DNA of 64,000 nt. Source: Azolla caroliniana (taxonomy: Eukaryota; Plantae; Polypodiophyta). The DNA lies in contig JBHGNT010000018.1 of NCBI GenBank assembly GCA_043228905.1, positions 9,486,001 through 9,550,000 of the forward strand, in the 5' to 3' direction. Position numbers and translations under genes: made by a program. A model generated the notes under the pieces. The model was not told the origin of the DNA. It did no database searches and worked only from the letters and a program-made list of their open reading frames with translations. This document shows, piece by piece, positions 3,040 to 53,675 of this stretch; within the stretch, counting starts at the first letter, position 1; every line of letters begins with the position of its first letter.

Positions 3040-3406
3040 AGGCCTTCATACGGTGATATAGACCGACAACCAAATCGCGTCGAGGTTGGTCATGAGATTC
3101 TATCGTATCAAGGAAGCCTTATCATCAATTAAGGATCAGTGACCGACCGAAGCATGATGTAGCTTCGGTGTCGTGTTAAACAAGCTAGCTACATTTGAGA
3201 GTATTATATTAAGTGACATTTGAGAGACTTCAACCCACAACCTTATATACCAAGTAGAAAGTACATATCACTAAGCTAAGTTGTTTTTCAAAACCATGTT
3301 TTCATCATTGTACTTATGCCATGTAAATTTTCATACACGAGAGCTCGAATGAGTGAGATGGTTATCATGCACCACATGCATTCCATGCATTTTATGCATG
3401 CCTTGT
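3040..3406 (+). mobile_element. Old Phygy-like LTR fragment (U3), truncated by a copia LTR; left end approximate
   Basis: 3260-3406 aligns with the reverse complement of 28037-28220 (gagctcgaatgagtgagatggttatcatgc...catgcattccatgcat). Confidence 0.65.
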
Positions 3407-3609: not shown

Positions 3610-4058
3610 TGTTGTCCGCCGGAATAGTAACCGACGGACAAGAGCACAGGAATACAGAATAGTATAATATTGTAACGCATGTAACGGTTCACGCGGGAAG
3701 CGTGAACGACTAAAAGACCTTGCGTATATAAAGGGCAGAAAACCTCTGATAGAGGGAGCGTGTAATTTTGAATGTAAGAGACGTATCGTAATAGAATTCT
3801 ATCTTCTTTGATATCTGTGTGTAGCTACGACTAATCTACTGTGTGTCTGTAACACCTGAGAGCGTAGGAGTAAGTAACGGCGTGTGTATTAGCCCACTGT
3901 CAAAGGAGCTCGGTTATAGCCGTCTCCCTTATACGCTGCTAGGTTACGGGGAACATCCCACTAAGTATTACGCACAGACGCTACCATTCGTTGTCACACA
4001 GTTACTTGGAGGTCTAGGTCGAAGGACTGACCGTAGATCGTGATCCTAATCGGTAACA
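3610..4058 (+). repeat. 5' LTR of the first Ty3 element
   Basis: Direct repeat of 12897-13344; TATA gtatataaag at ~3724. Confidence 0.93.
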
Positions 4059-4062
4059 CTTT

Positions 4063-4076
4063 TGGCACGCTTGGTG
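4063..4076 (+). promoter_or_regulatory. Primer-binding site, tRNA-Arg type
   Basis: TGGCACGCTTGGTG 4 nt after the LTR; matches the recalled plant tRNA-Arg(UCU) 3' end ...CACCGAGCGUGCCA with one G-U pair. Confidence 0.75.
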
Positions 4077-4092
4077 ATCTGTGTCTTCTCAC

Positions 4093-9780: not shown

Positions 9781-10025
9781 GGACGGGCCACTTGTATCAT
9801 AATGTAAAAATAGGTTGTATGTAACCGTTACGAAACGAAAAAAAAAGGAAAAGAAGAAGAAGAGAAGATAACGACGCTATTAAAAAAGGACTGAATGCAT
9901 GCACAGACTTCTAGACAAAGAACACGTGGCACCACGATGGTTCACCGCCCAATGAACCTTAGGCCACAAAAAGAAGGAAATAGAAGGTCTTTTGCACAAA
10001 ATAGAAATCCACCTCCTAACCCTCA

Positions 10026-12849: not shown

Positions 12850-12896
12850 AGGGATGGGTCCGACGTGCCATGGCACTGTCCCACAAGCGTGCCAGG

Positions 12897-13344
12897 TGTT
12901 GTCTGCCGGAATAGTAATCGAGGACAAGAGTGCAGGAATACGGAATAGTATAATATTGTAACGCATGTAATGGTTCACGCGGGAAGAGTGAACGTCTAAA
13001 AGACCCTGCGTATATAAAGGGCAGAAAACCTCTGATAGAGGGAGCGTGTAATTTTGAATGTAAGAGACGTATCGTAATTGAATTCTATCTTCTCTGATAT
13101 TTGAGTGTAGCTACGGCTAATCTACTGTGTGTCTGTAACACCTGAGAGCGTAGGAGTAAGTAATGGTGTGTATATTAGCCCATTGTCAAAGGAGCTCGGT
13201 TGTAGCCGTCTCCCTTATACGCTGCTAGGTTACGAGCAACATCCCACTAAGTATTACGCATAGACGCTACCATTCATTGTCACAGAATCACTTGGAGGTC
13301 TAGGTCGAAGGACTGACCGTAGACCATGTTCCTAGTCGGTAACA
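12897..13344 (+). repeat. 3' LTR of the first Ty3 element
   Basis: Direct repeat of 3610-4058, followed by TSD GTTGC. Confidence 0.93.
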
Positions 13345-13548
13345 GTTGCCTTGTTGCTTATTATTGTACATTCCTCTTACCTTGGTCACTTGCTCTGAGT
13401 TTGTGGACTCTCGTGTTTTTTCCCTTTCAATGTTTCCACGTTAAAAATACTTGTGTCTCTGTGTTGTGCATCGTTTACGTTATTTAAGTTTTCTGCCATT
13501 CTCGTTTGTGCTTGAAAATCAATTGTGACCGATCCCATATAACAATTT

Positions 13549-15306: not shown

Positions 15307-15689
15307 TATCATGGGTAGAAAATATACACCAGAGAGTAGAAGATAATCAAAGGGATGAGTTGACTAATTGAAAAACTCCGTAACTGGTGTTCACCTTGAT
15401 TATAATCTTGGTGAACACACATATGTATACAAGTTCTGAGATTGAATATCTGTAGCATATACATAAGAAATATCTCTAAAATATACCGCAAAAATATCTC
15501 TAGAATATACCATAGAACATTTCTAGAATATACTAAAGACTAGAATATATGCTAGGATATATAATATTAAACATATATACTTTACATATAGCTTAAGGCT
15601 TTTCAAATGGTTTAATATCTAATACTACATATTGGGTGTGTTATAGATCAGAGGTTCGAGTCACATCCTAGATGTGACATTATCCCCCT

Positions 15690-16212
15690 TCCTATGCCAC
15701 CTTCCCAAACCCGTCGCCGGTTCTGTGTAGGCATTTTGTAAATTCTGTGCGGGTTCCCACGTGGTGTCAGACAAAGGGTAACCCTTCCAGAAGACGAGGT
15801 ATTGCAGGTGTCGACGATGCAAAGGTGAGTCAAGTATTTGGTTGACCCCGTATTCCTCGCCTGTCGTCAATTGCACAGGGGGTGGTGGAAGGGCTTGGCG
15901 TCCTAGGATCTGTGAAGGATAATGGGGCTCGAGAAGGGAGACATGAAAAACATCATGAATTCGAAAGTGGGATGGAAGGGCCAACTGGAAGGTGACGACA
16001 TTAATGCGCTCAACTATACGGAATGGTCCCAACTTCTTGCAATCAAGTTTTGCACATGGACGGGTAGTAGAGATGTGCCGTCGTAACAACCAGACCATGT
16101 TGCCAACGACAAAGGGTGGAGTGACAGAGTGATGGCGATCAACGTGCTTCTTGTATCGTTCACCAGCGAGACGAAGTTCTAAGGATAAGTCATGATGTAG
16201 CTCTTCTAAAAT
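15690..16212 (-). pseudogene. Tcn1-A integrase C-terminus (GPF motif) and chromodomain
   Basis: KKLGPFRIV..IHDVFHVSLL..EEYGVNQILDS..WKGY..TWEP. Confidence 0.85.
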
Positions 16213-18353
16213 CCGGTGTCGAGGTATTCCTCGCGGATGCGTGGAATGAGGCGGGACCTCGGGGGTCTTGTACCGAAGAGCAAGAGAGAAAGGAGAAGGG
16301 AACCCACTACGTGCGAGCGTAGATTCACAGGGACACGGCCCTTCGACACAAAGACGCGAGTGGGACAGAGACACAGAGAGACACGAATGTATGTATGTAT
16401 TAACAAAGACAAACAACAAGAACACGAAGTCGGTTACAACCGAACAGGCCGGCGAACAGATGCCGATGCCTGTTCGTAAACGCACAAAAAGAAAGGAGTA
16501 GGTTGGAGGTGCTGCCGGAAGCACTCGGGCATTCCTCAGAGCAGCGCGAGCCTCCCGAAACCTGCACAGAAAGGAGCTATGGAGTTTGGAAGAGAGAGAA
16601 GCCTTCGGCCCGGAATCCGATAGCACTTCGTCCTCTCTTACTTCGCGATTCCTTCCTCTTCCTCGTCTCCCTCCTTTTCTAGGAAAGAAGGGAGTCGTTT
16701 CCTATTAACTTCCTACCTACCGAATCTGCCTACCTAGGATCTTCTACGTACAACATAAGGCGTAATGCATGAAGAGCCGGTTCCTACGCTCCGGTGCACC
16801 GATTCCGCTTGTGGACGGTTTTCTTCACGACATCCGCCCCCACCTAACCGCACATCCACCAGCATGCGCCAAATTGAGTTGGGACGGAGAAAACCGGTCC
16901 AGCCTTCATTCCTCGCCCGTCGGTTCTTCCTCGGTTTCGGATCGTTCGTCGTCGCGGTCCAGGTTAACCGGATCCGGACTAATGCCTTGACGATCGGTCC
17001 GTGTCCGCGCTCCACCTTTCCATTCGCCTCCGGATTGTACCCAGTGGTAAGCGAGAGCTTGACTCCTAACCGGTCGAACAACTCCTCAGCCTCTTCGGCG
17101 TCCAACTCCCCACGATCAGCCACGATCTTCCCGACGCACCCGTACCGGCATATCACGTCCTCGATCAGGAACCGACATACGGCTGCGGTCGTTTTGTTCT
17201 GAAGGGCCCGACCTTCCACCTGGTTCGTCAGATCTTCCCGAGCCAGGACCAGATACCGCATCTGTCCTACTCCCATCGGCATCGTCACCAGATCTACCAT
17301 CCATTTGAAGTGGATGGTTGGAGGGTACGTAGGGTGAAGCTCGTCCCGATGTCGGACTACGGAGTGCATCTGACAGCTCTCGCAAGTTGTCACGAACTGA
17401 TGCACGTCCCGGTACAATCCTGGCCACCAGTACTTCCCCTTTATCTTCTCGAACGTGGCCCACGTTCCACGGTGTCCAGCCCAAGGGCTGTCGTGGTAGG
17501 CTGTCAACAGCTCCTCCTGTTCTTCCTTCATCGCCACCACCCGGAGTGGGACGCCGTTCCTCTTCTTCGGGTGCTTCCATAAGTATCCGTCCCGGAGAAA
17601 GAATCGATAAGCTTTCTTCCGGATCTGGTTGGCCTCGTCCTTCGTCCATGACGCATCCGGCGTCATTGTCCTTAAAAATCCACCGATCTGGAGCCACTCG
17701 CCGTCGTACTTGCTCTCGTTGAAGTCGTTAAGTGCAGGAGTGCTCGTCCCATCGGTCGTCACGTAGGCCGCCTCGAAGAAGTCCACGCCGACTTCTTCGT
17801 CCTCCGAAACCATGCCGCCCTCGTCATCAAACCTCGCCCTCGAAAGCATGTCGGCCATGGCGTTGTCCTTTCTGGAAATGTGCCGTATTTCCGGATCCAG
17901 GAACTTGATGTACGCTATCCACCTGAGCATCGCCAGGTCCGGTGTCGCGCATCCGGAAACCATGCCGAGAATTGGCAGGCAATCCGTCTCGATAATCACT
18001 TCTGTCCTAATCAGGTAGTCTTTGTCGGCCTTTACTCCCGAAACGATACCCTAGAGTTCGCGTTTAACCTGGGCGTACCCTCGCTGTCACTCACTGAGGA
18101 CCTTCGTGCCGAATCGGATCGGGAACCGAATGCCGTCCCCGTCTTCTTGGTTGACGACCCATCCGATCCCGGTCGGACTCGTATCCACCGTTATGTATAC
18201 CGGGGTACCCTTCTCGTAGACAGCCTTCCGGAGCGCCGGTGCTGCCACAAGAGCTTCCTTCAGCTTCCGGACCGACTCCGTGTGCTCGTCTCGCCACTCG
18301 AATTTTCGCCCTTTCTTCAGCAACCCGTATAGCGGCTCCGCAATGTGGGTAAA

Positions 18354-27688: not shown

Positions 27689-28917
27689 TGTCGTGAAGAT
27701 CCGTCACTACGTGCGGATCGTGAGGCGGAACCACCAGGGTTCTGGATCGGAAAGATTCGAAGTTTGCACTAGCTTTAGCGAGAAAATATTTAAGATAGAT
27801 TGAAAGAGAGAGAGATTGACATAAGATAGAACGCTTGACTTTTGATTGAGAGAGATTGAAATGGAGAGAGAGAGATTGAGATAAAGATTGAACCTTTGAC
27901 TTTAGATTTGAGGGACAAGATAAATCATCAATTGGATAACGAATTTTCTTCTTTTTTATTAAATTCTTGGTTAATACATCGCTGCCTTTGATATTTTTCA
28001 TCCACTCTTTTATAGACGCCCCCATGCATATGAGGGTACAAGACATGCATACAATGCATGGAATGCATGTGATGCATGTTTGCCATTTGGCGCTCATGCA
28101 TTACATGTGATGCATGATAACCATGTCACTCATTCAAGCTCTAATATGAGAATTTACATGTAAAAGTATAATGATAGAAAAAACATTTCTAAGGAGATGT
28201 TTTAGTTTAGTGGTAAGTCTATTGTCTCTTATCTTGGAAGTGCAAGGTTCAAGCCTTGCTTGCATCCCTTTGTATTAAAACTTTTACTAGGTTTTTTAGT
28301 CTAGATATTTTGTTCGTTTCACACCGAAATCGTCACGATCAACCTATTCGATCGATTCGTCTATACGGTCCGCATTCGACCCGGTGATCTGGTCTATCTG
28401 GTCCGGTTCCAGTGCTGGTCCTGGTCTCGGTTCGGCCACCATTCCAGTTCCGGTTCAGTCGCCGTCCGGTTCCGGTTCCGGCTCTGTCATTGTCTGTCCG
28501 GTTCTGTCGCTAGTTTTGTCACTGTCTGGTCACCCAAAACTGTTACGAGTAGTTAAGCCACAGTTTAGCCCAAGAACATTCCATGTTCCACTCATAAACA
28601 AAAAGTAATAAGTTCTGGCTCTGCTTATATACTGTGGGATCCTGATTTGTCCTATCTATGTGGGATATATCATAGTTTTGTTTTGTTTTGTTCTTCTCAA
28701 ACTTCACATTTACATAACTTGACATTTAGTTGTCCGTTTCAAATGTGGTAAAGTACATTTAGAAGCTCGTGAAGACCTCCATCTTCCCGTACCAAGATAT
28801 TAAGCTAATATAAAATAGTATCTTCACTATTATTGTTTCATGTCTTGTGTGAAGAACCACACTCGATTTTGTACATTCCTCGCAATTTTTACACCATTGC
28901 CGAAAATCTTCACGACA
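27689..28917 (-). mobile_element. Phygy-like solo LTR (1229 bp)
   Basis: 12-bp terminal inverted repeat TGTCGTGAAGAT..ATCTTCACGACA; flanks ACGG/ATAG (decayed 4-bp TSD that restores host TTTPVLLH); U5 motif shared with the other Phygy-like LTRs. Confidence 0.85.
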
Positions 28918-36127: not shown

Positions 36128-37342
36128 ACGCGTCTTCTTGAAGATCAATAGGATAGTCGTAGAGCCGGTGTTCGGGCAAACGATCTGCATTATGTTTCTC
36201 AAATACATCGGAGAAGTCTTTATACTTTTCGGTAATAGTGTGGAGTGTGTTAGAAGTAGCTCCACAAACAACGAGTGGGTGATGAACTAAGGGTTGCATG
36301 GTCGAGTCGGAATCGACCATCTCCGGAGGATGTGAAATTGAATTAACCTTCATAGTTGTGTGCGAGCATCCTGGCTCGCTAAATGTGATCGAGCGACGGC
36401 ACCAATCCATTATTGGATTGTGTGCCTCCAACTAGGATAGTCCTAAGATGATCATATGCCGAGGAGATGTGATGAGGTAAAATGGGAGCTCCTCCTGGTG
36501 GGAGCCCACATAAAGCCCTAATGGGATTGTAGTCTCGGTAATTGCTGCTGACGAGAGGGCACACCCATCAATGGCTTAAACAAGAATGGGGTTTGAGAGG
36601 CACACGAAGGGTATCCCATGTGCTCGGGCGAATGCCACATCGATGAAGCAAGAAGACGCTCCAGAATCAAGAAAAGCGACAAACCGAATGGAACTGGAAT
36701 TAAAAGAAAGGCATACCTCCAATGTGAAATTGCCTGATGTTCTACCAATGGAACCAAGAGAATGTGGATGACGGGAGACGTCCAGTTGCATGGCTCCTAA
36801 TGCAATCAGACAATGTCGTTTTCTGGATGTTGGGGTCCATTGACGTGATAGAATGGTGGGCAATTACTCCTAGGACAATGGCGAAGGAGATGACCCGATG
36901 CACTACAATATAGGCACAATCCATTAGCCCACCGAAATTGTCATTCGGCATCAGTCAATGGCCGAAATCGAGCTTGATCAATTTCCATTAGTACTGGAGC
37001 ATCTGCCAAAGTAGGGGAGCGTGACACCACCGGAGGGAGTGATACCAAGTGTTGTACGACTGGGGTGTGTCGTGTAAATGAATGAGTCGAACCCCAAGTC
37101 TGGCGCTCTTCCTGGCGAAATTCAAAAAGACGATTGTCACAATGGACTGCTTGTGAAATCACTTGGGATAACGAGGTGGGGTCGGGAAAGTTCTAGAGAA
37201 GATTCTTGAAATTGCTTTGAAGGCCTCTCCGAAAGTGATAAGCTAAAGCTTGATCATCCCAGTTGACGTCACGTGCTAGTTGTCATAATTCCGAAGCATA
37301 GACAGAAGTTGCACGTGAACCTTGTTCGAGTGCATAAAGCTT
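36128..37342 (-). pseudogene. Tcn1-A gag C-terminus and protease
   Basis: AVHCDNRLFE, MEIDQARF, FLDSGASSCFID, LPEHRLYDYPIDL. Confidence 0.85.
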
Positions 37343-37350
37343 GGTGATGT

Positions 37351-37394
<44 letters not shown>

Positions 37395-37789
37395 GGAAAG
37401 ATTGTATTGTAGAGTAAAATGGATTACAAGGAGTAGGCAATAGAGTGCTACAAAATGGCGTTGAACCAATTTAGGTTTGGGATGATTGATAGATCCCTAT
37501 TTATAAGTAATAGAGAACACTCTAGAATATTCTAGGTCATCCTAGAATGTAGAGTATTCTAGAAGGTTTCTAGAGTATTCTAGAAGGTTCTAGTGTATAG
37601 AACACTCTAGAATATTCTAGGTTATTCTAGAATGTAGAGTAATATAGATTATTCTTATGATATTAGATTATATATTCTAAAAACTATACATATAAGAATA
37701 TTAATTCAATGGTTAAGGTTTTGACATGTGTACAACAAGGTTGTGGGTTTAAATCCTTTCGAGGCATGATTTGAGTGTCATCATGACAC

Positions 37790-40700
37790 TATCCCCCTTT
37801 TTCGACGACATGTCTCACGGGTCGTAGGGTTTGTATTAGGACCTGGTTTACGAGGATATTGGCGATGAATTGCAGTGACCATATCCGCAACATTGGAAAG
37901 ATTTGCGGCAAGTTCCCAAGTTTGATCATTGGGGGTATAACCTAGCCAATCGACCAAGTAATACAGCTTGTTGCGCATGATTTTAGAATCGAGAATGGCA
38001 GCAACCTCAAATTCGGGTCCATCCAAGAACTCAACAGGTGGTGGTGGTGTCGTAAGACGGTCCGGAATTGAACTTGCATTCCCAAGTTTGATCATTGGGG
38101 GTATAACTTAGCCAATCGACCAAGTAATACAACTTGTTGCACACGAATTTAGAATTGAGAATGGCAGCAACCTCAAATTCGGGTCCATCCAAGAACTCAA
38201 CAGGTGGTGGTGGTGTCGTAAGACGGTCCGGAATTGAACTTGCATTCCCAAGTTTGATCATTGGGGGTATAACTTAGCCAATCGACCAAGTAATACAACT
38301 TGTTGCACACGAATTTAGAATTGAGAATGGCAGCAACCTCAAATTCGGGTCCATCCAAGAACTCAACAGGTGGTGGTGGTGTCGTAAGACGGTCGGTAAT
38401 TGAACTTGTAGAATAAGGTTCCAAACGGGATACACGAAACACTAGATGAAGACGCATGTGCGGAGGGAAGCCAAGACGAAATGCAACATCACTTATCTTA
38501 CCAGTGATCATGTAAGGGCCAAAATTCTGGTAATCCAATTTACTACAAGGCCGAGTGATCTTGATGTTGTGTTGGAGAAGCCATACATGATCCCCAACGC
38601 GGAACTTTTTTGAGGAGTCTAGGTGATGACAATCCGCAAGCCGCTTGTGTGTAACTTGAGCATCATGCAAATTGTGGAGAATGGTAGTGTGAATTTTTTG
38701 GAGGCGACTAAGACAATCCTCAACAGCAGGGTTGGTAGGAACGTGTGGATGCACATTCATCGTCCACTGAGGATGACAACCCGTATTTGCGAAAAATGGG
38801 GAATATCTTGTAGAAGAATGAGCTGAGTTGTTGTAAGCGAATTCAGCCAAGTGCAAAAAATCAACCCAATCATCTGGTTGATAGTTGATGAAACAAGGAA
38901 GATATTGCTCCAAAGTCTGGTTAGTACGCTCAATTTGGCCATTACTCTCGGGATGATAGCCCGAAGAAAGCTCAACCGAAATGTGGAGAAGTTTGAACAT
39001 GTGCTTCCAAAACTTTGAGATGAATTCTAGACCACGATCACTAATAATATCATCTGGCAAACCATGATGCCTAAATACCTCCCGCATAACGAGATCGACC
39101 ACCTCTTGACTAGTAATAGACTTTGTACATGGCAAGAAGTGTGCCATTTTGGTAAGTCGATCCACCACAGTGAGAATTGCATCAAAACCTTTTCAAGGAT
39201 ATAGATGTCCAAGGATTTTCCGGAATGGGAAGTGGTTGTAGTAAGCCATAGGATCGGTGTCGAAGACTCTTTGCTCGACAACATATATCACAACTGCGAA
39301 CATACTCCTCAACAAAATGACGAACGCGGGGCCACCAATAGTGTCGAGAAATTAATTCTAGAGTTTTGCGAACTCCAAAATGACCAGCCATTGGTGAGTC
39401 ATGGCAATGTTGTAAAACTTGTAGTCGTGGGGAACCATCAGGAACATACAATAGGTTTTCTGAAACAGAAAACCACCATGCTAATAGAACTGATGATATT
39501 CATTATGAGAGTTTTTCGACTGTGAGCAAGAAGCACCAACCGGGATGATATGATCCAAAACATCCTTGGCAAATTCATTAGTGACCATATGATCTTGAAT
39601 GGAATCAAGAAGAGTGGAATCTTCAAGCATTGTTATGGCATTAACTACCATTAATCGGAGGTGATTAGGACCCAAAAGGATTTGTTTTTGATGCTCGAAT
39701 GTAGGTTCCCCTGGACGAAGTTCCATGTAAGAGCACCGAGAAAGAGCATCTGTATTGCCTTGCTGCATCCCAGGGTGATATATGATGACAAAGTCGAAGT
39801 GAGTCAAAAATTGCGCCCACCGGGCTTGTCGCTGACTCAAGACTCGAGCATTTTGAAAATATGTCAGGTTCTTATGATTGTTGTAAACAATGATTTGCTA
39901 AGAAGAACCTTCTAGAAAATGTCGCCATTGTTGAAAAGAATTAACAATTGCAAGAAGTTCTTTGTCATGGATCTCGTAGTTGATCTCTACAGCTTCAAAC
40001 TTTTGGGAATGAAAGGCGACAGGGTGTAGTTGTCCATCATCTCTAGTCTGCGATATGACACTCCCTAGTGCAAAATTGGATGCATCGGCTTCAAGGATGA
40101 AGCATTTTGTTGGGTCAACATGTGCTAAGATAGGTGTCGTTGTAAACGTTCGTTTTAAGATTTTGAATGCCTCAGCTGCATCTGAACTCCATATAAATGG
40201 CTGATTTTTGTGTGTGAGTGGAAGCACGACATTGGAATAATCTTTAATAAATTTTCGATAAAAATGTGCAAACCCGGGAAAACATTGCACATCACGCACT
40301 GAAAGGGGTGTTTGCCACTCTAAAATTGCTTGTACCTTCATGGGTTCCATAGCAATACCATCTGATGATACAACATACCCCAAAAATTCCACTTGATTCT
40401 GGCCGAAACTACACTTTTCTAATTTTGGGTAGAGACCATATTCTTGGAGTCGACACAGTACCTGACGAACATGTTCATCATGCTCCTCTTGGGTCTTCGA
40501 GTAGATTAGAATATCATCCAGGTAAACTATAGTGAAGATATCGAGAAAGTCTCGAAAAATATCATTCACCATATGTTGGAAAACTGCAGGTGCATTCGTG
40601 ATACCGAATGGCATCACAGTATACTCAAAATGTCCATAGCGAGTGCGAAAAGCTGTCTTCCATTCATCCCCCAGGCGAATCCGAACTAGATTATATGCAC

Positions 40701-41688
40701 TGCGAAGGGCTAACTTTGTGAAATATTTTGCTCCATTGAGATGTTCCAAAAGATTCAGGATTAACGGTAGAGCATATCTATTCCGGATAATCACTTTGTT
40801 TAGGCCTCGATAATCCACGATCAACCAAAGAGTCCCATTCTTTTTCTTGACGAAGAAGATAGGTGCGCCCGCAGGGGATCTAGAATGCCGAATGAATCCG
40901 TTTGCCAAATTCTCATCAATATATTCCCGCAAAGTCTCTAGCTCTACAAGGGAGAGACTATAAATTGGGCCCCATGGAGGTTCTTTCCCTGGTTGTAAGT
41001 CAATAGGGCAGTCGTATGGCCGATGCTCCGGCAATGTATTGGCCTTCACCTTATCAAAGACATCTGAGAACTCTTTGTATTTCTCTGGTAGTTTAATGTC
41101 AGCTTCATGTAAAGTGGATGATGGAGTTGCTACTATTGTGAAGACGAACATGGCCTCGTTCCCCCCTTCCTCACGCAACTGTCGTAGAGAGATGGTCGAT
41201 AACTCAAGGGATCTAGTATCACATGTCCAAGAGAGGGATGCAGGGTTTGTGCTTTTTTCCCAGGTCTCCGCAATTGTGCTTTTCAACCAATCAATCTTTG
41301 GGTTATGGAGTTCAAACCAAGGGAGACCTAGCACTATTGGGTGTTCCAGATTGCGAATAATGTTGAAAGAGATTATGCTTGCCAAATCGCCAAGAACTAT
41401 CCGAATTGGCTCGGACTCCTCGACTTTATCTCCTGATGCTATGGGATAGCCATCAATCACTCCTACGGCTACTAGGCTTGGGAGCTTATTCAAGAGGATG
41501 TTTTGTGACAAGGCATATTCACGATCCATGAAACAAGAGGTGGCTCCAGAATCTAGGAGGGCAGAGGCTAGGACTCGATGACATGTAGATGTGGTAAGCT
41601 CGACTTGTGCAGAAAAAACTTGACTCACTTGATTTGAGGAAATGGAACCACGACTAGGAACTAACTCTACATAGCTAGGATGGTCCAA
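37790..41688 (-). pseudogene. Tcn1-B pol (PR-RT-RH-INT-chromodomain), disrupted
   Basis: LLDSGATS, YLDD, EADAS, HDSPMAGHFG, EFEVAAILDS..YLVDWLGY..TWE. Confidence 0.92.
37913..38410. repeat. Three tandem 166-bp copies of the chromodomain-coding segment
   Basis: Units start at 37913, 38079 and 38245. Confidence 0.9.
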
Positions 41689-42050
41689 CCAAATGGCTCC
41701 TATTTTGGCCAGACTTACTCGTTTAGCACATCCTCTAATTGGTTCAAGACATCAAATCTATTTTCATGGCATGGACAATGAGGCTTACTTATGTTATTAG
41801 AAGTAACAATGGAACTCGAAGTAGGGTTGTCATGGGCACTTGGTATACTTGACGTCTAGGTTTATGTGGACAATTTACAACTGTATGTCCTGGACCGTCA
41901 CAATATAGGCATAGGCGATGCACTCAACGATGTTACTTCTCGGCATCTGATAAATGCTCACAACATTGTGTTGACTCTATTTCCATCGAAGTTGGGTCAT
42001 CCCTTGCAATGGGTCTGGAAGCTTGTGGAGGTGTTTGACTACGGAAGCAC

Positions 42051-45000
42051 TGTCGTAGTGTAATTCGCACACTACGTGAAAATTGCATTTTGGTTCCTCT
42101 AGATGGGACAAGGAGGAACTGGTAAGGAGAATCGGTTGAAGGAGGAACCGGATGAAGGAGGAACTGGCAAGGAGGACCCGGTAAGGAGACCTAGATCAAG
42201 CAGAACCAACAAGAGCTGGATAAAGAAGGCCGGTGAGAGTCTCTCACCGGATGAAGAGAAAAATTTGTAAATAGATGAAAAGATTGTTACATGCACAGGA
42301 CAAGATTCGAACCCTGTACCTCCACGTAGACAAACCCCAACCTTGCCATTGTACTAACTTATTCTAAGTGATTTAAATAAAGATTTAATACGTATAAGAC
42401 CTTTATTAAAAGGTAAGTCATGCATTTTTTGAATGCGTGAATACATTATTTATAAGAAAAATGTACACCAATAAAAAAAAATTACTCGTGCGCATCTAGC
42501 GAGCATGAGCACTATATTTAGTAAATAAAAGCATAGTGTAAAAAGCAACTCATGCACATTTAGTGTGCATGAACACTTTAGAAAAAGCACGAAGCTATGC
42601 TTAGCCTCTTCCATCCTTATATAAGGAGGAGAGAAATATGTATGGGGTTGTTGATTATTTTACATGAATTGATCAATCTAATATATTCGTGGGATTCACG
42701 AGTTTATCATCAAAATTCTCTTTCTTACAATCTAAATATTGATTAAATACACAAAACACGTGGGATTCACAAGTTTTATTTCTTACTTCTCTTCTACCTA
42801 TTCATAACTAGCCTTATATTGAATTCTTCTTTCTCCTAGTCCAAAACCTCAGTGGTTCCCACCCGACTCACGCAACGATCCGGAGCCGAAAGGCACATCA
42901 CAAGTGGTGAACCCGACATGAAACCGGGTGGAAAGGAGATGGAAAATCAACCAGGGGCTAACAACATGATGGCGATGTTTGAGTGGATGCTACAAGAACA
43001 ACACGCGATGTTGGAGATTGCGGTGGCAGTAGAGCGGCTTGTGCAACGGAACCAGCAATTCAACGGGAAAGACGTGTCGCGATATTTGCGAGATTACAAG
43101 GCAGAAATGCTACGGTGCGGGATTTCGGAAGGACTGCAAGTGACATCCTTCAACCGCGTGGCGACCGACGGGATTCAAGGGAGTATCCATGGGATACGAC
43201 AACAAAATCCGACGTGGGAGGCATTTGAAGAGGCGCTAAGGACCACCTTCGCCATCGAGGACTCCTCCAAGGCAACGAGGAGGAGATTCGAATATTGGGT
43301 GGAAACACTGGATAAGGGGATGAAGGTCCTTGATGTGTTTTCATCATTTGAAAGTCAGTTTGGGAGGTTGTTTGCGAGAGATCAAGCTATCGTTGCACCG
43401 GAAAAAGTGATCATGTTCCTACGAGTTGTGGATATCCGGCACCAGAAAGATCTTGGAGTGCTTTTGGAGGACACGACCACTGAGAGTGGCCTCGCCGAAA
43501 CATGGGAAAACATGCGGGATATCGTCATGCGATACACGAAGAAGGGGCAATGGCTTGCTAGCGAAGAAAAGAGGGTTTCAGAACCGATTCCGAAACCGAG
43601 ATCCGGTTTGGAAGACCATCAACCAAGGGCTCGGGAGACTACGACCGAGAAGGGAATTGATGCAACCACGGTGGAGCAGTTGTTGAAAGAAATGGAGAAT
43701 CTGAAAATTGCGATGGTAAAGAAGTCTGATGACCGTCCCACAAGCTCCAAGTATATGGACCGTCGGTGCATATGGTGCGATAGCCCTGAACATGATCGGA
43801 GGGATTGCGACGAGCACAAGGAGGCATTACGACGGGATCTTATGTACTACGAGGGAAATCAGATCCATTCAATGGACTCTCGGAAGCCACTCCGATTGAA
43901 CTTCCGGAAAGGCGGCATGAAGAAGGTCCTCGAGGAGGAAATAACAGTGAAAAGCAATTATGTGACAACTGCGGGAATATGTGTTGGGGAGTCATCGGGA
44001 GCAAAGGCGTCTTTTTGGCCGGAAGTGCTAGAAAACCCCAAGAAAACCGATTCCAATGAGATCCGAAGCACTGCGGAAGGCATTTGAGAAGCTACGAAAT
44101 GGGAGTGCCCCATTGATAAGAATAGTGTACACGACGCCCTATGCCAATTGCATGAGGTGTATGTAGACGACAAACGACGGTGCACGGATGATGCGGATGG
44201 ACCATCAAAGACACCAGAAAGCTGGAACTCCGGAGGGAAGGGGAAAGAAAAGACGATTCCGTCATTCAAACTCGCCTCAGACATCGAACAACAAACAGAC
44301 TTGAAAAAAGTGTTCGAGGAGAGAATCCTCGATAGCTGAGTGGAATTTTCGCTTCGGGAATTGCTTGGAATAGCGAAGAAGGAGTTCCATGATCTTCTTG
44401 TGGATCTCGTGAAGAGAAAAAGACAAAGTACGGAGGAGAACGCTCCAAGCGTAAATGCGAACACGGTTTTAATGAATGACACCGAAGTGGAGGACGAAAT
44501 TCCGAACTCCCACTACACAAGGCCACACTGGGCACGTGCAACTACGAAGACTCTGATCCGAATCGGCAACATCAAAGAGCCCGTGCTAGAATTGATTGAT
44601 CACAGATCGGAGATCAATTTGATGTCCAAGGAGTTCTACCGGAAGGGGAAGTGGCCTATAAACACTAACAATGGATGGAAGATCCGTGCAACCACTAAAG
44701 CAATAGAAGACCTATTTGCGGCTTGTTCGGATGTGACGGTGAAGATCGGAGATGTGGAGATAGACCAAAATTTCTTTGTGCAAGATGAGGTCTCACACTC
44801 CGTGATCCTCGGGTAACCCGTTATCACGGCATCATGGATGGAGACGAAGGTGCTCGATAGCGGTGCGGCTTTTGCACAAATTCGGAGTCAAAGCGGAGGG
44901 AAATCCATCCAATTCCTAACTGTGCCTGCGAATCATGTAAGGAACAAGAGAGAGCTCTTGTCCCAAACAAGGATGAATTTTTAGAGTGGATTTTTGCGAA

Positions 45001-48000
45001 GTGGGGAAGTGATAGTCTGAGAAGCCCTGAACCCCACATAGGAAGAAAACTCTCGGAGCAAAACAAATACGAATTGGTCCGGATGGGGCATCTACGTACA
45101 TGGCCATAACTAGAGGAAAGAAGAAAGAATACCGAAAAGTAGAGGATAAGTTGCGGTCGGCATCAATAATAAAAGAAGACGAAGAAATCGTGGGGTTAGT
45201 CGAAGAAGTGTTCTATGGGAACATGCTACAATGGCTTGAAGAGCTTGTGGAGGATAAAAGCCAAGGAGACCGGGTAGTCTCGGTGGAATCGGTCGAGATG
45301 TACTAGATCATTGCGAAAATGGGGCCGGATGTGCTCCACAAAGAAGAAGCAATGGTAAGTACGAAATACAAGACCGTGGAGAAGAAAGTGAAACCGGCCG
45401 TGGGACCGTTACCCGCCGATAGCGAGCAAAACAGGAAAGAAGTCTCGGGAGATCCGACACTTAGGAAGTTCGTGGATATCGGAGATACCTTCACGGATGA
45501 GACCCGGAAGAAACTTCGGATCGGTGGAGGTGGTTTCCTTTTACAAAATGAAGAAGAACAATTCCGTGGGATGTTGGAACAACATGGGAAAGCATTTGCA
45601 TTCACATTGAAGGAGATAGGGTGCGTTGATCCGAAGATAGTGGAGCCGATGGTGATCTTCATGATTGACCATGTGCCGTGGAATCTAAAGCCGATTCCGG
45701 TGCTGCGGGCACATATTCCCAAAATCATTGACTTGCTCAAGGAGAAGGTGGCGATGGGGATTCTAGAGCCATCAAACGCTCCGTACTCAAATCGATGGTT
45801 TACGGTTCCGAAGGAGAATGGGTCACTTTGATTTATCCAAGACTTGCAACCGGTGAACAAGGTCATGATCCGGAACTCCGGAGTCAGTCCGATAGTGGAC
45901 AAATTTGCAGAAGCATTTGCCGGTCGTGCGATATACTCCATTGGAGACCTATACTTAGGGTATGACCAATTCCAACTAGCCATGGAGAGCCGAGACATCA
46001 CTACTATGCGGACACTGATAGGATTAGTCCGAATGTGCACACTACCACAAGAAGCGACAAACTCAGTTGCACATATGATGAGCGCGATGAACAAGGTGCT
46101 TCGAGATTGCATTCCGGAGATAACGATGCCGTTCCTAGATGACATTCCGATGAAAGGATGCGCGGTAGAAGAAAAAGATGAAACTATGGATGATCGGGGA
46201 TGCCGAAAATTCGTAGTCGACCATATTTGTGATTGCAAGAAAGTGCTTCGAAAGTTAGAAGATGTGCACCTAACACTTTCCGGGGAGAAATCGGCATTCG
46301 GGCAAGAAGAGATATTGGTAGTCAGATATCTATGTGGGCCCTACGGCCGAAGACCGTCACCAACCAAGATCAATGCGATTCAAGCTATGAAAGAAGTATG
46401 CGAGTCACAATCTGAAGTCTGAAGGTTTCTTGGAGCTTGTGCATTTTATCGCATATGGATTCCGCACTATGCACATATTGTGGAACCAATCTATCACTTA
46501 TTGTGGAAGGGGAAGAAGTTCAAATGGAAACCGGAACACACCAAAGCCATGAAGAAGCTCAAAGAAACACTACGGAGGGCTGAAGCACTTAAGAAGCCGA
46601 GCTATGAGCGACCGATCATAGAAACCGTTGATACAAGTCCAACCAGGATCGGATGGGTCATCAATGAAATCGGATTGAGGTTATTTGATCGGAGCCGAAG
46701 TAGTGATCGAAACGGATTGTCTTCCGATACTCGGGATGATGCGGTGTTGCACGATACTGTATGTGGCTATGCTAAGATGGATTGCATATGTTAAGTCGCT
46801 TAACCCGGATGTACAACACATCTCCGGAAAAGACAATGCAGTAGCGGATATGCTATCAAGGGCTCAGTTCAGAGACGACATAGCCGAATCCGATAATGAA
46901 GAAGTTTCTCAAAACTACTTTGCTTCGGAGCACATATGCTGAGTAAACGTAATCTGAGAATTCCGAGAAAAAGAATACGAGGGAGACAGCTTGATGATCG
47001 GGAAGGTGCTACAAGAGATTGAGGAATCATTGGACGATAAAGAGAAGAGAGCCGAGATCCGAAGGAAGAAGAGGGAAGTCCAAAAGTTCTTCTTGAAAAA
47101 TGGATTAATATGGAGGGAGCCGAAAAGACTGGATGGCATACTACTTCGGGTAGTCGGGATGAAAGAGCAACGAAACTAGATAATGTCCGAGTTTCACGAA
47201 TCCGATTGGGCTGGACATCGAGGAACATGGACAACTTTTGTGAAAATCAAACAAAAATATTGGTGGAAGAATATGTACAAAGATATAGCGGAGTTCATGA
47301 AAAGCTGCGAGAAGTGTCGAATCTACTCCGGAATTCGACACCGAGATGAGTTACATCCGACATTCTCACCGACAATCAACTTCAAATGGATGGTCGACAT
47401 TGTAGCTATACCAACCGGGATCGGACAAAAGAAGTACTTGGTGTTAGCTCGGGAAGATCTCACAAACCAAGTAGAAGGTCAGGCGCGACGAAGGAGAAAG
47501 TGTTCTGTGGTATGCCAATTTCTTTTGGAGGAGGTGTTTTGCAGGTACGGGTGCGTAGGACAAGTGATTGCGGATCGGGGAGAACTCGACTCTGATAAAG
47601 CTAGGTAATTCTTCACCAAACATGGAGTTCGGTTAACACTAACAACAACATACAATCCGGAGGCCAACGGGAAAATCGAACGAGGACATAGTCCGATCGT
47701 CAAAGCACTTGCCAAAGCATGCGACGGAAGGGCGAAGGATTGGCCGCAAATGTTCCCGTATGCACTATGGGTGGATTGGACGACGCATAGTTCCGTAATC
47801 GGTTATATGCTGATAGAACTTATGACCGGACAAGCACCGGTAATGTCGACGGAAACCGCAATTGCGACATGGACAACGCTGCCGTCGAAGGAAGAGATGA
47901 GCCGAGAAGAAATACTAGCGGTCCAGATACGACAACTGGGGGGAAGACCGGAAGACATAGCGGAAGCAACACGCCGACAATAGGAAGCGGGATTCCGGAA

Positions 48001-49321
48001 CAAAAACTGATTCGAGACAAACCACTGACTATGACCACGGAAGATTGAAGAAGGAGATTGGGGGATTGTCTATGACAGTAGTTTGGATCATCAACATACA
48101 ACGATACGGAAGTTCACAAAAAGGTGGTTCGGGCCATACGAAATTCGGAAAGTTTTCGACAACGGAACTTACCGACTATGCGAATTGGATGGAACGATAC
48201 TACGAGTGCCTATAGCGGGGAAACGGGTAAAGATCTTCAAGAAGCGGACTGACGACGAACCCTATGTAACCCTAGACAAGAGCGACAACGAGGAGCAACC
48301 GGACAAAGATCGTGGTGATGCGGAAAGCGAAGAAAGTGGACTTCAACTCGTAGAGAATCGGAGAGTGCTACGGATGAAAGCGAATAATGAGCATCGGGAA
48401 CTTCGGCACATACTGGAGGATGTGCGGGTTTGGAGGGGGCGAGTGTCGTAGTGTAATTCACACACTACGTGAAAATTGCATTTTGGTTCCTCCGGATGGG
48501 ACAAGGAGGAACCGGTAAGGAGGAACCGGTAAGGAGAACCGGTAAGGAGAACCGGTTGAAGAAGGAACCAGATGGAGGAACAGGCAAGGAGACCCGGTAA
48601 TAACCGGATCAAGCAGAATCGGCAAGAGCTGGATAAAGAAGGCCGGTGAGAGTTTGTCACCGGATGAAGAGAAAAATTTGTAAATAGAAGGAAAGATTGT
48701 TACATGTATAGGGCTGGATTCGACCTCCACGTAAACAAACCCAAACCTTACCATTGTACTAACTTATCCTAAGTGTTTTAAATATATATTTAATACATAT
48801 AAGACCTTTATTTACGCCTACCTTTATTAAAAGGTAAGTCATGCAGTTTTTGAATGTGTGAATACTTTATTTATAAGAAAAATGTACACCAATAAAAAAA
48901 AATTACTCGTGCACATCTAGCGAGCATGAGCACTATATTTAGGAAATAAAAGCATAGTGTAAAAAGCAACTCATGCACATTTAGTGTGCATGAACACTTT
49001 AGAAAAAGCACGAAGCTATGCTTAGCCTCTTCCATCCTTATATAAGGAGGAGAGAAATATGTATGGGGTTGTTGATTATTTTACATGAATTGATCAATCT
49101 AATATATTCGTAGGATTCACGAGTTTATCATCAAAATTCTCTTTCTTACAATCTAAATATTGATTAAATACACAAAACACGTGGGATTCACAAGTTTTAT
49201 TTCTTACTTCTCTTCTACCTATTCATAACTAGCCTTATATTGAATTCTTCTTTCTCCTAGTCCAAAACCTCAGTGGTTCCCACCCGGCTCACGCAACGAT
49301 CCGGAGCCAAAAGGCATGACA
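42051..49321 (+). mobile_element. Phygy-like Ty3/gypsy element B, degenerate
   Basis: LTRs 42051-42900 and 48444-49321, PBS TGGTGAACCCGACATGA at 42905-42921, PPT ggagggggcgag, flanks GCAC/ACGC (decayed GCGC). Confidence 0.92.
42918..48440 (+). pseudogene. Phygy-B gag-PR and RT-RH-INT with many premature stops
   Basis: CIWCDSPEH, IDHRSEIN, FLDD, HESDWAGHRG, WFGPY. Confidence 0.9.
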
Positions 49322-49325
49322 ACGC

Positions 49326-50095
49326 AAGTCTGTTCTGGTTGGCGGCGTAACATTTGTTGGCTCTTAGAAGGTCGCTCAAATAGGCGATTATCACATTGCA
49401 CGACTCGACTAATGGCCTCTGTAAGCAACTTCAGATCTTTATGGAAAGTAAGAAGAAGATCTTTGACATCATTTCGCAAACCTTGATGGAATTGATACAT
49501 TAAGGCCGCCTCATCCTAAGGGATATCGCATACAAAGAGACGATAATAAGTTGCGTAAGCCAACACGAGACGATCTCCTTGTCGGAGCCTTCAAATCTTT
49601 TTTATCGTTGTCCTAGTGGTGTCAGTGTCAGTGTCTCCTAAACTTGTTTGAAACTCCTTAACAAATGCCTCGAAATCCTCCAGCAACGACGATTTCTTCT
49701 CGAGAAGTGGTGCGAACCATGCAAACGCCGTACCACATAGCAAAGTTCCCACTAATCCAACACGAGCAACATCAGTGGGATACTGATTGGGATGTAGCTA
49801 AATAAACAAACAAACTTGATTCAAAAGCCTCGAAATAAAGACCTTGTACCATGAAACTTGGCAGGGAGGCTAATATTTAGGTCTTTAGGGGAGTTCTGAG
49901 CCCCTGACACTTGTTCTCGTAATGATAATATAGTTGCCTCGAGTTGGTGAACCCATTGTGATAATTCTTCATACTGTTGAGCTTTTTCGGCGCTCACATG
50001 TTGTAGGTCTCCAAGTAGCCTTTCATTTTCATGCTCTAATGCCACAAATTTATTCGTGAGCATGTCGAGCTCAGAAAGAACACACATATACTCAT
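49326..50095 (-). pseudogene. Tcn1-B gag N-terminal part
   Basis: ISLPAKFHGTRSLFRGF; FHQGLRNDVKDLL..CDNRLFE. Confidence 0.8.
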
Positions 50096-50194
50096 GTTTT
50101 GTCACGGAGCTTATGAGGGGAGAGGAGAAGGAAGAAGAGAACTTGTTAGGGTTTGTGGAAGAGGAAGAAATGAAAAAAAATTGTTTCAAACTGT

Positions 50195-50256
<62 letters not shown>

Positions 50257-50650
50257 GGAAATATTGTATTGCAGAGTAAAAGGGATTACAAGGAGTAGGC
50301 AATAGAGTGCTACAAAATGGCATTGAACCAATTTAGGTTTGGGATGATTGATAGATCCCTATTTATAAGTAATAGAGAACAGTCTAGAAGATTATAGGTC
50401 ATCCTAGAATGTATAGTAATCTAGAAGGTTTCTAGAGTATTCTAGAAGGTTCTAGTATATAGAACACTCTAGAATATTCTAGGTTATTCTAGAATGTAGA
50501 GTACCATAGAATATTCCTATGATATTAGATTATATATTCTAAAAACTATACATATAAGAATATTAATACAATGGTTAAGGATTTGACATGTGTACAACAA
50601 GGTCGTGGGTTCAAATCCTTTCGGGGCATGATGTGAGTGTCATCATGACA

Positions 50651-51069
50651 GGTGAGGGTTCTAACTTGGCGAGGAAGGTGGGAAAGTCCTCCAATAGAGG
50701 TGACGAAGTTTCTACTAAAGGTGCAAACCAAGCTTGGGCCAGACTGGAGAGGAGGGTGCCCACAAGACCAACTTGTCGAAGACCATCTGCATAACATTGA
50801 GGGTGTAGCTGAATGATTAGACGAATTTGGTTGATGAAACCCTGGAAACGTGACCTCGTTCCATCAAATTTTTTTGGGAGGCTAATCTTAGGGTCAAGAA
50901 AATGAGAAAAAGCTAGAACAGATGCTGGTAGAAGATTGGGCTCCGGGCTAGGTTGTGGTGGGACACTAGGTTCCATGGGTTGTGAGGATAGGGAGGCACC
51001 GACTTGAAGTTCTCCTAAAGAATTCTGAAGAGCTTCATTTTCAAGCTGGAGTTGTTGTAAGGTTGTCAT
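50651..51069 (-). pseudogene. Tcn1-A gag N-terminus
   Basis: PKISLPKKFDGTRSRFQGFINQ..AQAWFAPL (PEG10/DUF4939-like gag). Confidence 0.85.
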
Positions 51070-51496
51070 TGTCTTGCTTAAGTACAGGTTGGGTCCGACA
51101 TAACTATGGCTAATGAGAAGGAGAGCTACGAGGATGGGACGGTGAACAAACTATCACGGGTAGAAAATATACACAAGAGAGTTGAAGATAATCAAAGGGA
51201 TGAGTTGATTAATTGAAAGACTTTGTAACTGGTGTTGTTCACCTTGATTATAATCTAGATGAACACACATATTTATACAAGTTCTGAGATTGAATATCTC
51301 TAGAATATACTCGTGTAGAATATACCATAGAACATTTCTAGAATATACTAAAGACTAGAATATTCTATATGCTAGGCTATATAATATTAACCATATAGAA
51401 TTTATATATAACTTAAGGGTTTCCAAATGGTTGATCTAATACTACATATTAGGTTTGTTATAGGTCAGAGGTTCGAGTCACATCCTAGATGTGACA

Positions 51497-52561
51497 TTAT
51501 GCATCTTTTAGATCTTTTTGCTTGCTTCCCATGCAATTCTAGGAAGTCGATGTGAGGGACTTTTTTGAACCTTAAGCATGTATTCAACAACCCTTTCCAT
51601 GGCCATGATCTCAATGGGAACTGATCCCGTCTCAAGGAGGAGGGTGTAGAGCGTTTGTTTCTTAACTTGTAGAAACTTTGTAAGAAAATGTTTTTGGACA
51701 TTTTCCAACTCTTTCCACGTAGATTTAGGGATGCTATTGCCCCATACGTCCACCCCATAGAGAAGAACTGGTGTCACCAAAGTGTCGAAAAGAGATTTCT
51801 TGAGGACCCAACACTTAATATATCCAAGAATGCATGTGTTCTCAAATGCATAGTATGCTCGATTACCCGCCTCTAAGCAGCATGTAGCACATTCATTCCA
51901 TCTATGATTTGAAGGAACTTTAAGGCCAAGATATTTGAAGCTTTCCACACATTCAAGTGGCTCATTGTTGTACATAAAGCATGGTTTATCTCTTTTTTGG
52001 CTCTTCACAAGCATAATCTTTGTTTTAGAGCTATTGACACTTAATTTAGTATGCATGCAAATTTTTTCCAATGCCTTCATAAGCTTTGGTGCATCTCCTA
52101 AAGTATTTGCAGAAAGCACTACATAATCTGCATATAGCAAAAGCATAATCATAACATTCCCAATGGCAACTTCTTCAACACATTCTGCCTTTGTAAACTT
52201 GGTAACCATTTCTTCCAATTCATCAATACATAGACCAAATACTATTGGTGAGAGTGGGCATCCTTGCTTAACACCAATTGTGCTATTGAAAAAATCTGAA
52301 AGTCTATCTCTCATACGCACACAACATATAACCTTCTCATAAATTTGGGAAATTGCAAGCATATATTCACTTGGCACCCCAAGTTCTTCATTTCGCCTCC
52401 AAAGATGCTCACGAGGTACCATATCAAAAGCTTTCTTGAAGTCTACAAAGCAACAATATAAACCTTTACCTTTAAGACGACCTTTCTCCATTAATACTCG
52501 AAGGGTGACAATGTGATCAATGGTGCAATGGTGTTTTCGAAAGCCAGTTTGTCCATAAGCT
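51497..52561 (-). mobile_element. LINE ORF2 reverse transcriptase region (RTE/RTEX-like), runs into the assembly gap
   Basis: QTGFR, FVDFKKAFD, GVKQGCPLSP, LLYADY (degenerate YADD), FKYLG. Confidence 0.9.
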
Positions 52562-52875: not shown

Positions 52876-53675
52876 TGAAATCTATTTTTTATAGAAAAAA
52901 TTCAAAAAAATTCAAAAAAATTCAAGAAAAAAAGCAAATTTGGAAGAAAATACGTTGTCGTAGTGTATTCCACACACTACGTGAAAACCATAAAATAATA
53001 TATCCGAATTTAGATACATATAAATAATAAATAATATATCAAAAGAATTTATCACGTGCATAGGGCAAGATTCAAACCATGCACCTCCACGTAGATAAAC
53101 CCCAACTTTACCATTGTAATAACTATCTTTAGTGGTTATAAATATAGATTTAATACGTATAAGACCTTTATTTACACATACCTTTATTAAAAGGTAAAAA
53201 TCATGTATTCTTTAGAGTGTGAATATTTTATTTACACGTGACATTAAAAGTGACTCATGCACGTCTAGCGTGCACGAGCCCTATATTTAGGAAATGACAA
53301 AACATCACATGCACATTTAGTGTGCATGGGCACTTTAGGTGAAAAAGCATGAAGCCATGCTTAGCCTCTTCCTTCTTTATATAAGGAGGAGAAAAATATG
53401 TATATGGTTGTTGATTAATATAGAAGAATTGATCAATCTAATAGATTCGGGGGATTCACGAATTTTGCCATCTAATTGCTCTAATAATCTAAATATTGTT
53501 TTAATTACACTAAACTCGTGGGATTCACGAGGTTACTATCTTACTTCTCTTCCTATTATTCATAACTAGCCTTAAGTTGTATTCCTCTTCCTCCTAGTCC
53601 AAAACCTCGGCGGTTCCCACCCGACTCACGCAACGATCCGGAGCCGAAGGGCACGACACAGTTGGTGAACCCGAC

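Follow-up and report, generated by a model that had tools for sequence, protein, structure and literature searches.

The window, by which we mean the whole 64-kb stretch analysed here, belongs to a 523-Mb genome and consists of a nest of LTR elements. Pfam searches identified chromodomain integrases at 38200-39192 and 15664-16701, several Ty3-type reverse transcriptase (RT) pieces and two Copia polyproteins. The chromovirus TcnB extends on the minus strand from 50650 to 37348, with a 5-bp target duplication, and three tandem 166-nt copies (37913-38410) lie across the end of its integrase/chromodomain. A further Ty3 element (3610-13347) has no purine tract before its 3' LTR (12870-12896), a peculiarity found also in three relatives. 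In what follows, TcnA and TcnB designate families of Tcn1-type chromoviruses, PhyB and PhyC designate Phygy families, and the module is the combination of an A box, the motif AGGT and a B box located in the LTRs listed in Table 1.

Table 1. Modules, LTRs and associated features. Coordinates refer to the window unless a contig or locus is named; spacing is the distance in nt from G18 to G53.
Feature	Position	Strand	Score	Spacing	Remarks
TcnB 5' LTR module	50564..50617	(+)	25.2	36	T8 50564, G18 50573, AGGT 50600, G53 50609; in U3, antisense to element
TcnB 5' LTR	50192..50650	(-)			TATA 50367; then self-priming-type site at ~50191-50180
TcnB self-priming partners	50191-50180 and about 50334-50323
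TcnB 3' LTR module	37702..37755	(+)	24.0	36	B box C56>T
TcnB 3' LTR	37348..37788	(-)			polypurine tract before LTR; TATA 37505; 5-bp target duplication shared with 5' LTR
TcnB pol pieces	38200..41751	(-)			RT, RNase H, integrase with SH3 and chromodomain
TcnA module	51420..51479	(+)		42	in LTR 51496-51152(-); AGGT and B box good, A box poor; TATA 51277
TcnA 3' LTR module	15600..15662	(+)		45	LTR 15679-about 15307(-); adjoins chromodomain integrase
Phygy solo LTR module	28203..28255	(+)	28.1	35	LTR 28916-27686(-); TATA 28014
PhyB 5' LTR module	42304..42356	(-)	23.4	35	LTR 42051-42900(+); TATA 42618; tRNA-Trp primer site 42905
PhyB 3' LTR module	48712..48761	(-)			LTR 48444-49321(+); A box whole, B box partly lost in this copy
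PhyC 5' LTR module	53069..53121	(-)	17.6	35	LTR 52956-53658(+); TATA 53378; tRNA-Trp primer site 53663
Old Phygy-type LTR fragment, decayed module	3226..3278	(-)	20.4	35	fragment starts 3169(+)
Free-repeat loci	L360-L372, L334, L341, L359; G000:C12 about 6813900-6814400
tRNA-gene arrays	G000:C18 about 9.58-9.72 Mb (L152-L166); L011-L019, L041-L042; C8 17.80-17.82 Mb; C16 4.99-5.11 Mb

An earlier note on this sequence had ascribed the LTRs to two unrelated Ty3 lineages, which we confirmed as a Tcn1-type chromovirus and Phygy; the presence of these lineages suggests a moss as the host. The chromoviral host element encodes a chromodomain integrase, lacks a tRNA primer site and is self-priming, and is assigned to Tcn1 by its match to the definition of that clade given in PMC6317226. 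The self-priming geometry, in which the 12 nt following the 5' LTR pair with 12 nt located about 33 nt past the TATA box, was found in four of six Tcn1 elements, with compensatory changes in the pairing seen between families. We considered whether the self-priming site and the B box are linked and discarded the idea: both hold GGTTCAA in some families, but elsewhere the site changes while the B box stays. Phygy elements were recognised by 4-bp NCGN target duplications (ACGT, CCGG and ACGT in intact relatives) together with a tRNA-Trp primer site, the two features by which a supplement row of PMC6317226 defines the group. The primer site of PhyB and PhyC matches the 3' end of the host tRNA-Trp, and the flanks of the PhyB copy itself do not form a clean target duplication. 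Internal regions of about 4.8 kb give RT and integrase matches, and Phygy elements are without a chromodomain.

The earlier note had described a segment of ~70-80 nt recurring in the U3 of nine LTR copies. All nine were found again, with the sequences as quoted and each located between the LTR 5' end and the TATA box; where a TATA box is present, it lies 143-262 nt from T8 of the module, in keeping with the ~140-260 bp first estimated, and the reported B-box deletion in the partner LTR of PhyB is present in its 3' LTR. The tRNA-like spacing attributed to the segment stands for six copies (both TcnB LTRs, the solo LTR, PhyB 5', PhyC and the old fragment), with 35-36 nt from G18 to G53, and fails for the two TcnA copies, with 42-45 nt and a poor A box; in class I tRNA genes of the same genome this distance is 34-37 nt. 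The proposed comparison of A/B-box matrices with shuffled sequence was carried out with matrices built from 15 of 16 host tRNA representatives, an incomplete set mixing nuclear and organelle types. At a score of at least 20 the window contains five matches, all among the nine segments, versus a mean of 0.19 (maximum 2) in 100 block shuffles. At a score of at least 16, the same two-box matrix and shuffling scheme yield ten matches versus 1.5 (maximum 6), seven of them among the nine segments, with the B box intact or nearly so, and three elsewhere.

Comparison of the boxes with their surroundings, also suggested in that note, came out in favour of the module. Pairwise identity over the 18 family clusters with a spacing of 35-36 nt (74 LTRs reduced to 27 clusters, 23 of them scoring at least 10) is 0.67 for the A box, 0.94 for AGGT and 0.84 for the B box, against 0.33-0.36 for the spacer and 0.35-0.38 for the flanks, with positions 49-51 at 0.46. 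Where the matrix itself scores a box position, the comparison is in part circular. Two checks avoid this: when only the B box serves as anchor, 17 of 25 families show an A.TGG core 34-36 nt upstream of it, and the motif AGGT, which plays no part in the matrix score, stands unchanged at positions 44-47 in 19 of 25. Family counts such as these are not independent, the families being related. AGGT is present in two of the 16 host tRNA representatives, as well as in Trp, Asn and some of the Ile copies, so that the motif may have been inherited and it is its retention that counts. Across 23 families the B box has invariant G53, T54 and A58 and a free position 59 (G in 7, A in 11, T in 3, C in 2), following GGTTCRANYC in agreement with GGTTCGANTCC as given in PMC3395662. 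The distance from the B box to the LTR end ranges from 6 to 63 nt in Tcn1, while the box spacing stays at 35-36 nt. The CG of the B box is often mutated in older copies, indicating that many copies were methylated.

The module has the A box and the B box, at tRNA-like spacing, that define a type 2 Pol III promoter, the A box being poor in TcnA. The earlier note had held that these segments are not functional tRNAs, and we agree: ARAGORN detected no tRNA genes in the window, and an Rfam search returned no RF00005/tRNA match at E<=10 over the whole window or in the 251 nt around PhyB, so that "tRNA-like" here refers to boxes and spacing only. Pairing in the anticodon (0.38), T (0.57) and acceptor (0.43) stems is no better than in row-permuted alignments, the corresponding values in host tRNAs being 0.83, 1.00 and 0.78. 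Boxes and spacing have thus been kept while the tRNA stems decayed, which, judged from the sequence comparisons, is selection on a promoter-type DNA signal; the pattern fits a double-stranded-DNA signal read by a two-part protein. In one Tcn1 family (L230-L234 and the own subfamily of L180), an inverted near-copy of the B arm lies in the spacer and gives a hairpin of about 15 bp.

The possibility that the segment is a SINE inserted in single copies does not hold, the module being present in 10 of 10 TcnB, 30 of 30 PhyB, 30 of 30 TcnA and 30 of 30 solo-family loci, a sample of 100 loci that were the top BLAST matches of module-containing queries and are therefore biased towards intact copies. 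Candidate numbers from a first look at the four window families are 814, 3558, 1572 and 2641. In the genome, 12,990 exact matches to the extended B box contrast with 39 for the reversed pattern; among the first 30 of the 12,990 matches, 14 have an LTR landmark (14 of 14 antisense), three are tRNA genes and 13 are without a landmark. A survey of 884 kb of the same genome yielded 95 module matches at a score of at least 20 versus 2-4 in controls, and 146 at a score of at least 16, of which about 48 stem from a degenerate host tRNA array and 116 have a spacing of 35 or 36. LTR elements in these 884 kb were delimited by direct repeat and target duplication (88 candidates, 34 past filters, 32 scored). 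The antisense module is present in all six intact Tcn1 elements, one of which is TcnB itself and two of which are near-identical (five at p=0.003; one, with a shortened 18-nt spacer, at p=0.03), and at p<=0.01 in none of 16 Copia, four other Ty3 and three unclassified elements. One of three intact Phygy elements carries it (p=0.02, with a sense match at p=0.003 in the same LTR), and two lack it. The intact Tcn1 element at G000:C18:9618907-9624567 (L155-L156) has lost the middle of its spacer, leaving 18 nt between G18 and G53 with both boxes kept.

The antisense orientation claimed for every case is correct for the nine window copies and does not extend to the whole genome, where orientation is biased, neither random nor fixed. 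LTR matches anchored by a landmark comprise 28 antisense and three sense modules. In one Phygy family (L310-L329), 20 of 20 copies have a sense module whose B box is followed by T4/T5 runs, and each LTR of the Phygy element L373 (1300-1800, 7800-8200) carries one sense and two antisense modules. A sense family and LTRs with modules on both strands fit a site acting as DNA.

Among Tcn1 3' LTRs located through the purine tract alone, eight of nine subfamilies carry the module. The analysis of other datasets included 80 loci on metagenome contigs encoding related integrases (52-95% identity), with a 3' LTR placed in 60; the module is antisense in 40 of these (p<=0.01) and sense in one. It is absent from all 13 placed LTRs from JGI records, the 11 distinct ones forming one fully supported clade, and seven of the remaining 47 fail p<=0.01. 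Scattered losses occur elsewhere in the tree of relatives, which is unrooted and thus permits, without proving, a single gain followed by losses. A search of viral contigs gave no relatives. A Phygy family tree, built from DNA after the primer site, aligned poorly and was set aside; its calls of families lacking the module are unreliable, as the LTR may have been displaced by nested insertions. The chromodomain-bearing RLG1 element of P. patens, whose expression comes from heterochromatic islands, showed by eye no antisense B box in the first 400 nt of its transcript, which begin at the LTR edge (PMC7466625). Relatives without the module weaken the case for insulation as a requirement.

Modules also exist outside LTRs, in a free repeat of about 200 nt composed of two A/B modules facing each other, which is both dispersed and tandem and often lies beside (GA)n. 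Over 63-65 nt, one of these two modules shares 84-85% identity with the U3 module of two Tcn1 loci from other datasets (L283, L284), the median identity between Tcn1 and other modules being 0.49, and one free-repeat copy is located directly before a Phygy-type TATA region. The free repeat suggests a shared donor or exchange between the lineages, and is a candidate SINE-like donor; the module likely arose when a tRNA- or SINE-derived head was captured, probably on more than one occasion. The genome also contains long tandem arrays of tRNA genes (Arg-like, Lys, Ile, Thr, Trp) in which many copies are degenerate.

The explanation we favour, held tentatively and with slightly more doubt than belief, is that the module is a type 2 Pol III promoter signal kept in U3 as DNA, a TFIIIC/TFIIIB site that would keep the LTR promoter open. 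Host TFIIIC would bind both the A and the B box in U3 and load TFIIIB on the AT-rich stretch between the module and the Pol II TATA box, and the resulting complex would keep the upstream LTR edge open against surrounding heterochromatin. That TFIIIC reads this box pattern we infer from work in yeast and human. Both yeasts and animals provide demonstrated cases of TFIIIC barriers, and for a pure barrier in yeasts the B box alone suffices; retention of the A box, together with the marked strand bias, therefore suggests real transcription as much as a barrier. TFIIIC is described as positioning TFIIIB upstream, within 50 nt, on AT-rich DNA (PMC13578239), and yeast TFIIIC sites as working as barriers (PMC3395662). 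The motive of a heterochromatin-targeting element does not apply directly to Phygy, which lacks a chromodomain. PolyA reads and contigs over window positions 36500-52000 and L180:4300-5400 are shallow, mostly 90-95% alike and without start or end peaks, and are uninformative on short Pol III RNA. A more elaborate version, in which two Ty3 lineages captured Pol III cassettes, exchanged them by way of a free, SINE-like donor and employ them as portable TFIIIC barriers for activity inside heterochromatin, strikes us as rather doubtful. If it were true, the genome's main TFIIIC sites would be these approximately 13,000 intact extended B boxes, which would shape the chromatin of the TE islands.

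The kept A box and the fixed spacing of 35-36 nt would equally serve a module that matters through its Pol III product, a short divergent or antisense RNA tuning the copy number or silencing of the element, which would run from the 5' LTR out into the flank and from the 3' LTR back over the polypurine tract and integrase. The 45 nt upstream are AT-rich by inspection, the antisense bias is 28 to 3 in landmark-anchored LTRs and 40 to 1 in other datasets, the sense Phygy family has T4/T5 runs past its B box, and foamy viruses are reported to make miRNAs by Pol III from U3 (PMC3993851). We nevertheless regard this account as unlikely, given that the would-be transcribed spacer is unconserved, that a covarying long flank-to-flank stem in Tcn1 is not above permuted controls (p=0.14), and that a T4 run lies within the LTR in only 5 of 23 Tcn1 families, with 25 of 40 lacking one in the 300 nt past the edge of the 3' LTR; as Tcn1 has no conserved terminator, the case for a defined small RNA is weakened. 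The same fold test gave p=0.03 for a non-Tcn1 set that is contaminated by tRNA pseudogenes and Tcn1 remnants. A role at the RNA level, with the U3 of the genomic RNA annealing to the D and T arms of a tRNA for priming or strand transfer, appears quite improbable. G53 and T54 never show wobble-compatible changes, and A58, in tRNA a modified, non-pairing base, is invariant; the best-matching tRNA varies by family, and a sense Phygy family exists. Phygy primes with tRNA-Trp, yet the B part of its module ranks Trp only 6th to 17th of 17 in seven of seven families, even though tRNA-Trp carries AGGT and its D arm ranks second of 17 for two of seven families. Exact stretches of 14-21 nt are common to some modules and host tRNAs, and the antisense-in-U3 geometry is exactly that of the Ty3 bipartite site in PMC5371799, but Tcn1 self-primes, in four of six elements here and according to PMC6317226.

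That the module is a neutral leftover of an inserted tRNA or SINE, passively retained in the LTRs, has a similarly small probability and is largely refuted already. Degenerate tRNA arrays and the free repeat with its similar module are abundant, modules are lost and boxes decay within old copies, all of which favours a relic; the identity of the boxes (0.67-0.94) relative to the spacer (0.33-0.36), and a spacing fixed at 35-36 nt while the distance from B box to LTR end varies (6-63 nt), argue the opposite. Repeated fresh capture could mimic part of this pattern, but not the fixed near-edge position in Tcn1. The location of the Tcn1 B box 6-63 nt from the U3 end would also suit a role in integration, either as a landing pad for Pol III-targeting elements or through TFIIIC near the cDNA end steering the element's own integration. 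To this we give the smallest weight. As regards the landing pad, among 271 external LTR junctions, a small sample partly chosen for uninterrupted LTRs, 12 fall upstream of a module or tRNA and 12 downstream at up to 400 nt, and no distance recurs among them.

It is a general question how an LTR element can retain a usable promoter after landing in heterochromatin, and a TFIIIC/TFIIIB site in U3 offers a precise, point-mutable candidate, in a plant group where gene targeting is available; the 12,990 exact extended B boxes imply thousands of mobile candidate TFIIIC sites. In open-licence PMC and bioRxiv we found no report of conserved A/B boxes in autonomous plant Ty3 LTRs and none of a TFIIIC barrier test for a plant retrotransposon LTR. 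A tRNA-like stretch is known in the U3-R of HIV-1. The part of PMC2864245 that describes Tcn1 LTRs does so without such boxes, and PMC10886601 refers to "not a few LTRs" with tRNA-like parts while its analysis, as presented there, concerns only TRIMs.

The yeast ETC and COC sites and tDNA barriers are similar in having a conserved B box with extra conserved bases and a proposed barrier role, but are fixed loci whose B box has a 3' extension, often without Pol III (PMC3395662), whereas the module described here resides in a mobile element and has an A box, tRNA spacing and a 5' AGGT. In Ty3, a bipartite primer-binding site makes U3 complementary to the T and D arms of the element's own primer tRNA (PMC5371799); in contrast, Tcn1 self-primes, and the B part of the Phygy module does not match the primer. 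Simian foamy virus provides a case of Pol III A/B-type elements in an autonomous U3 beside a Pol II promoter, with cassettes in which hairpins and terminators lead to miRNAs (PMC3993851), while conserved structure and terminator are absent here. Cassandra and Ajax TRIMs share an internal Pol III promoter in the LTR, but theirs is a 5S-derived type 1 promoter driving the genomic RNA of non-autonomous elements (PMC10886601). Helenus/TRIMp3 elements have a tRNA-like LTR sequence with conserved boxes A and B, a non-functional tRNA and a proposed SINE2 origin (PMC10886601), and here too the boxes stand in both LTRs (37702 and 50564 in TcnB, 42356 and 48761 in PhyB). Helenus elements are, however, non-autonomous TRIMs of 311-1263 bp, thought to be self-transcribed from their Pol III promoter, with Selaginella as the only plant case mentioned (PMC10886601), whereas the elements of the window are pol-coding Ty3 elements of 5-7 kb, neither short nor pol-less, with their own Pol II TATA box and a module mostly pointing away. 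The module, which is real and under selection and whose function we infer, thereby adds to the known Pol III-promoter-bearing LTRs and extends them from non-autonomous TRIMs to coding Ty3 elements.
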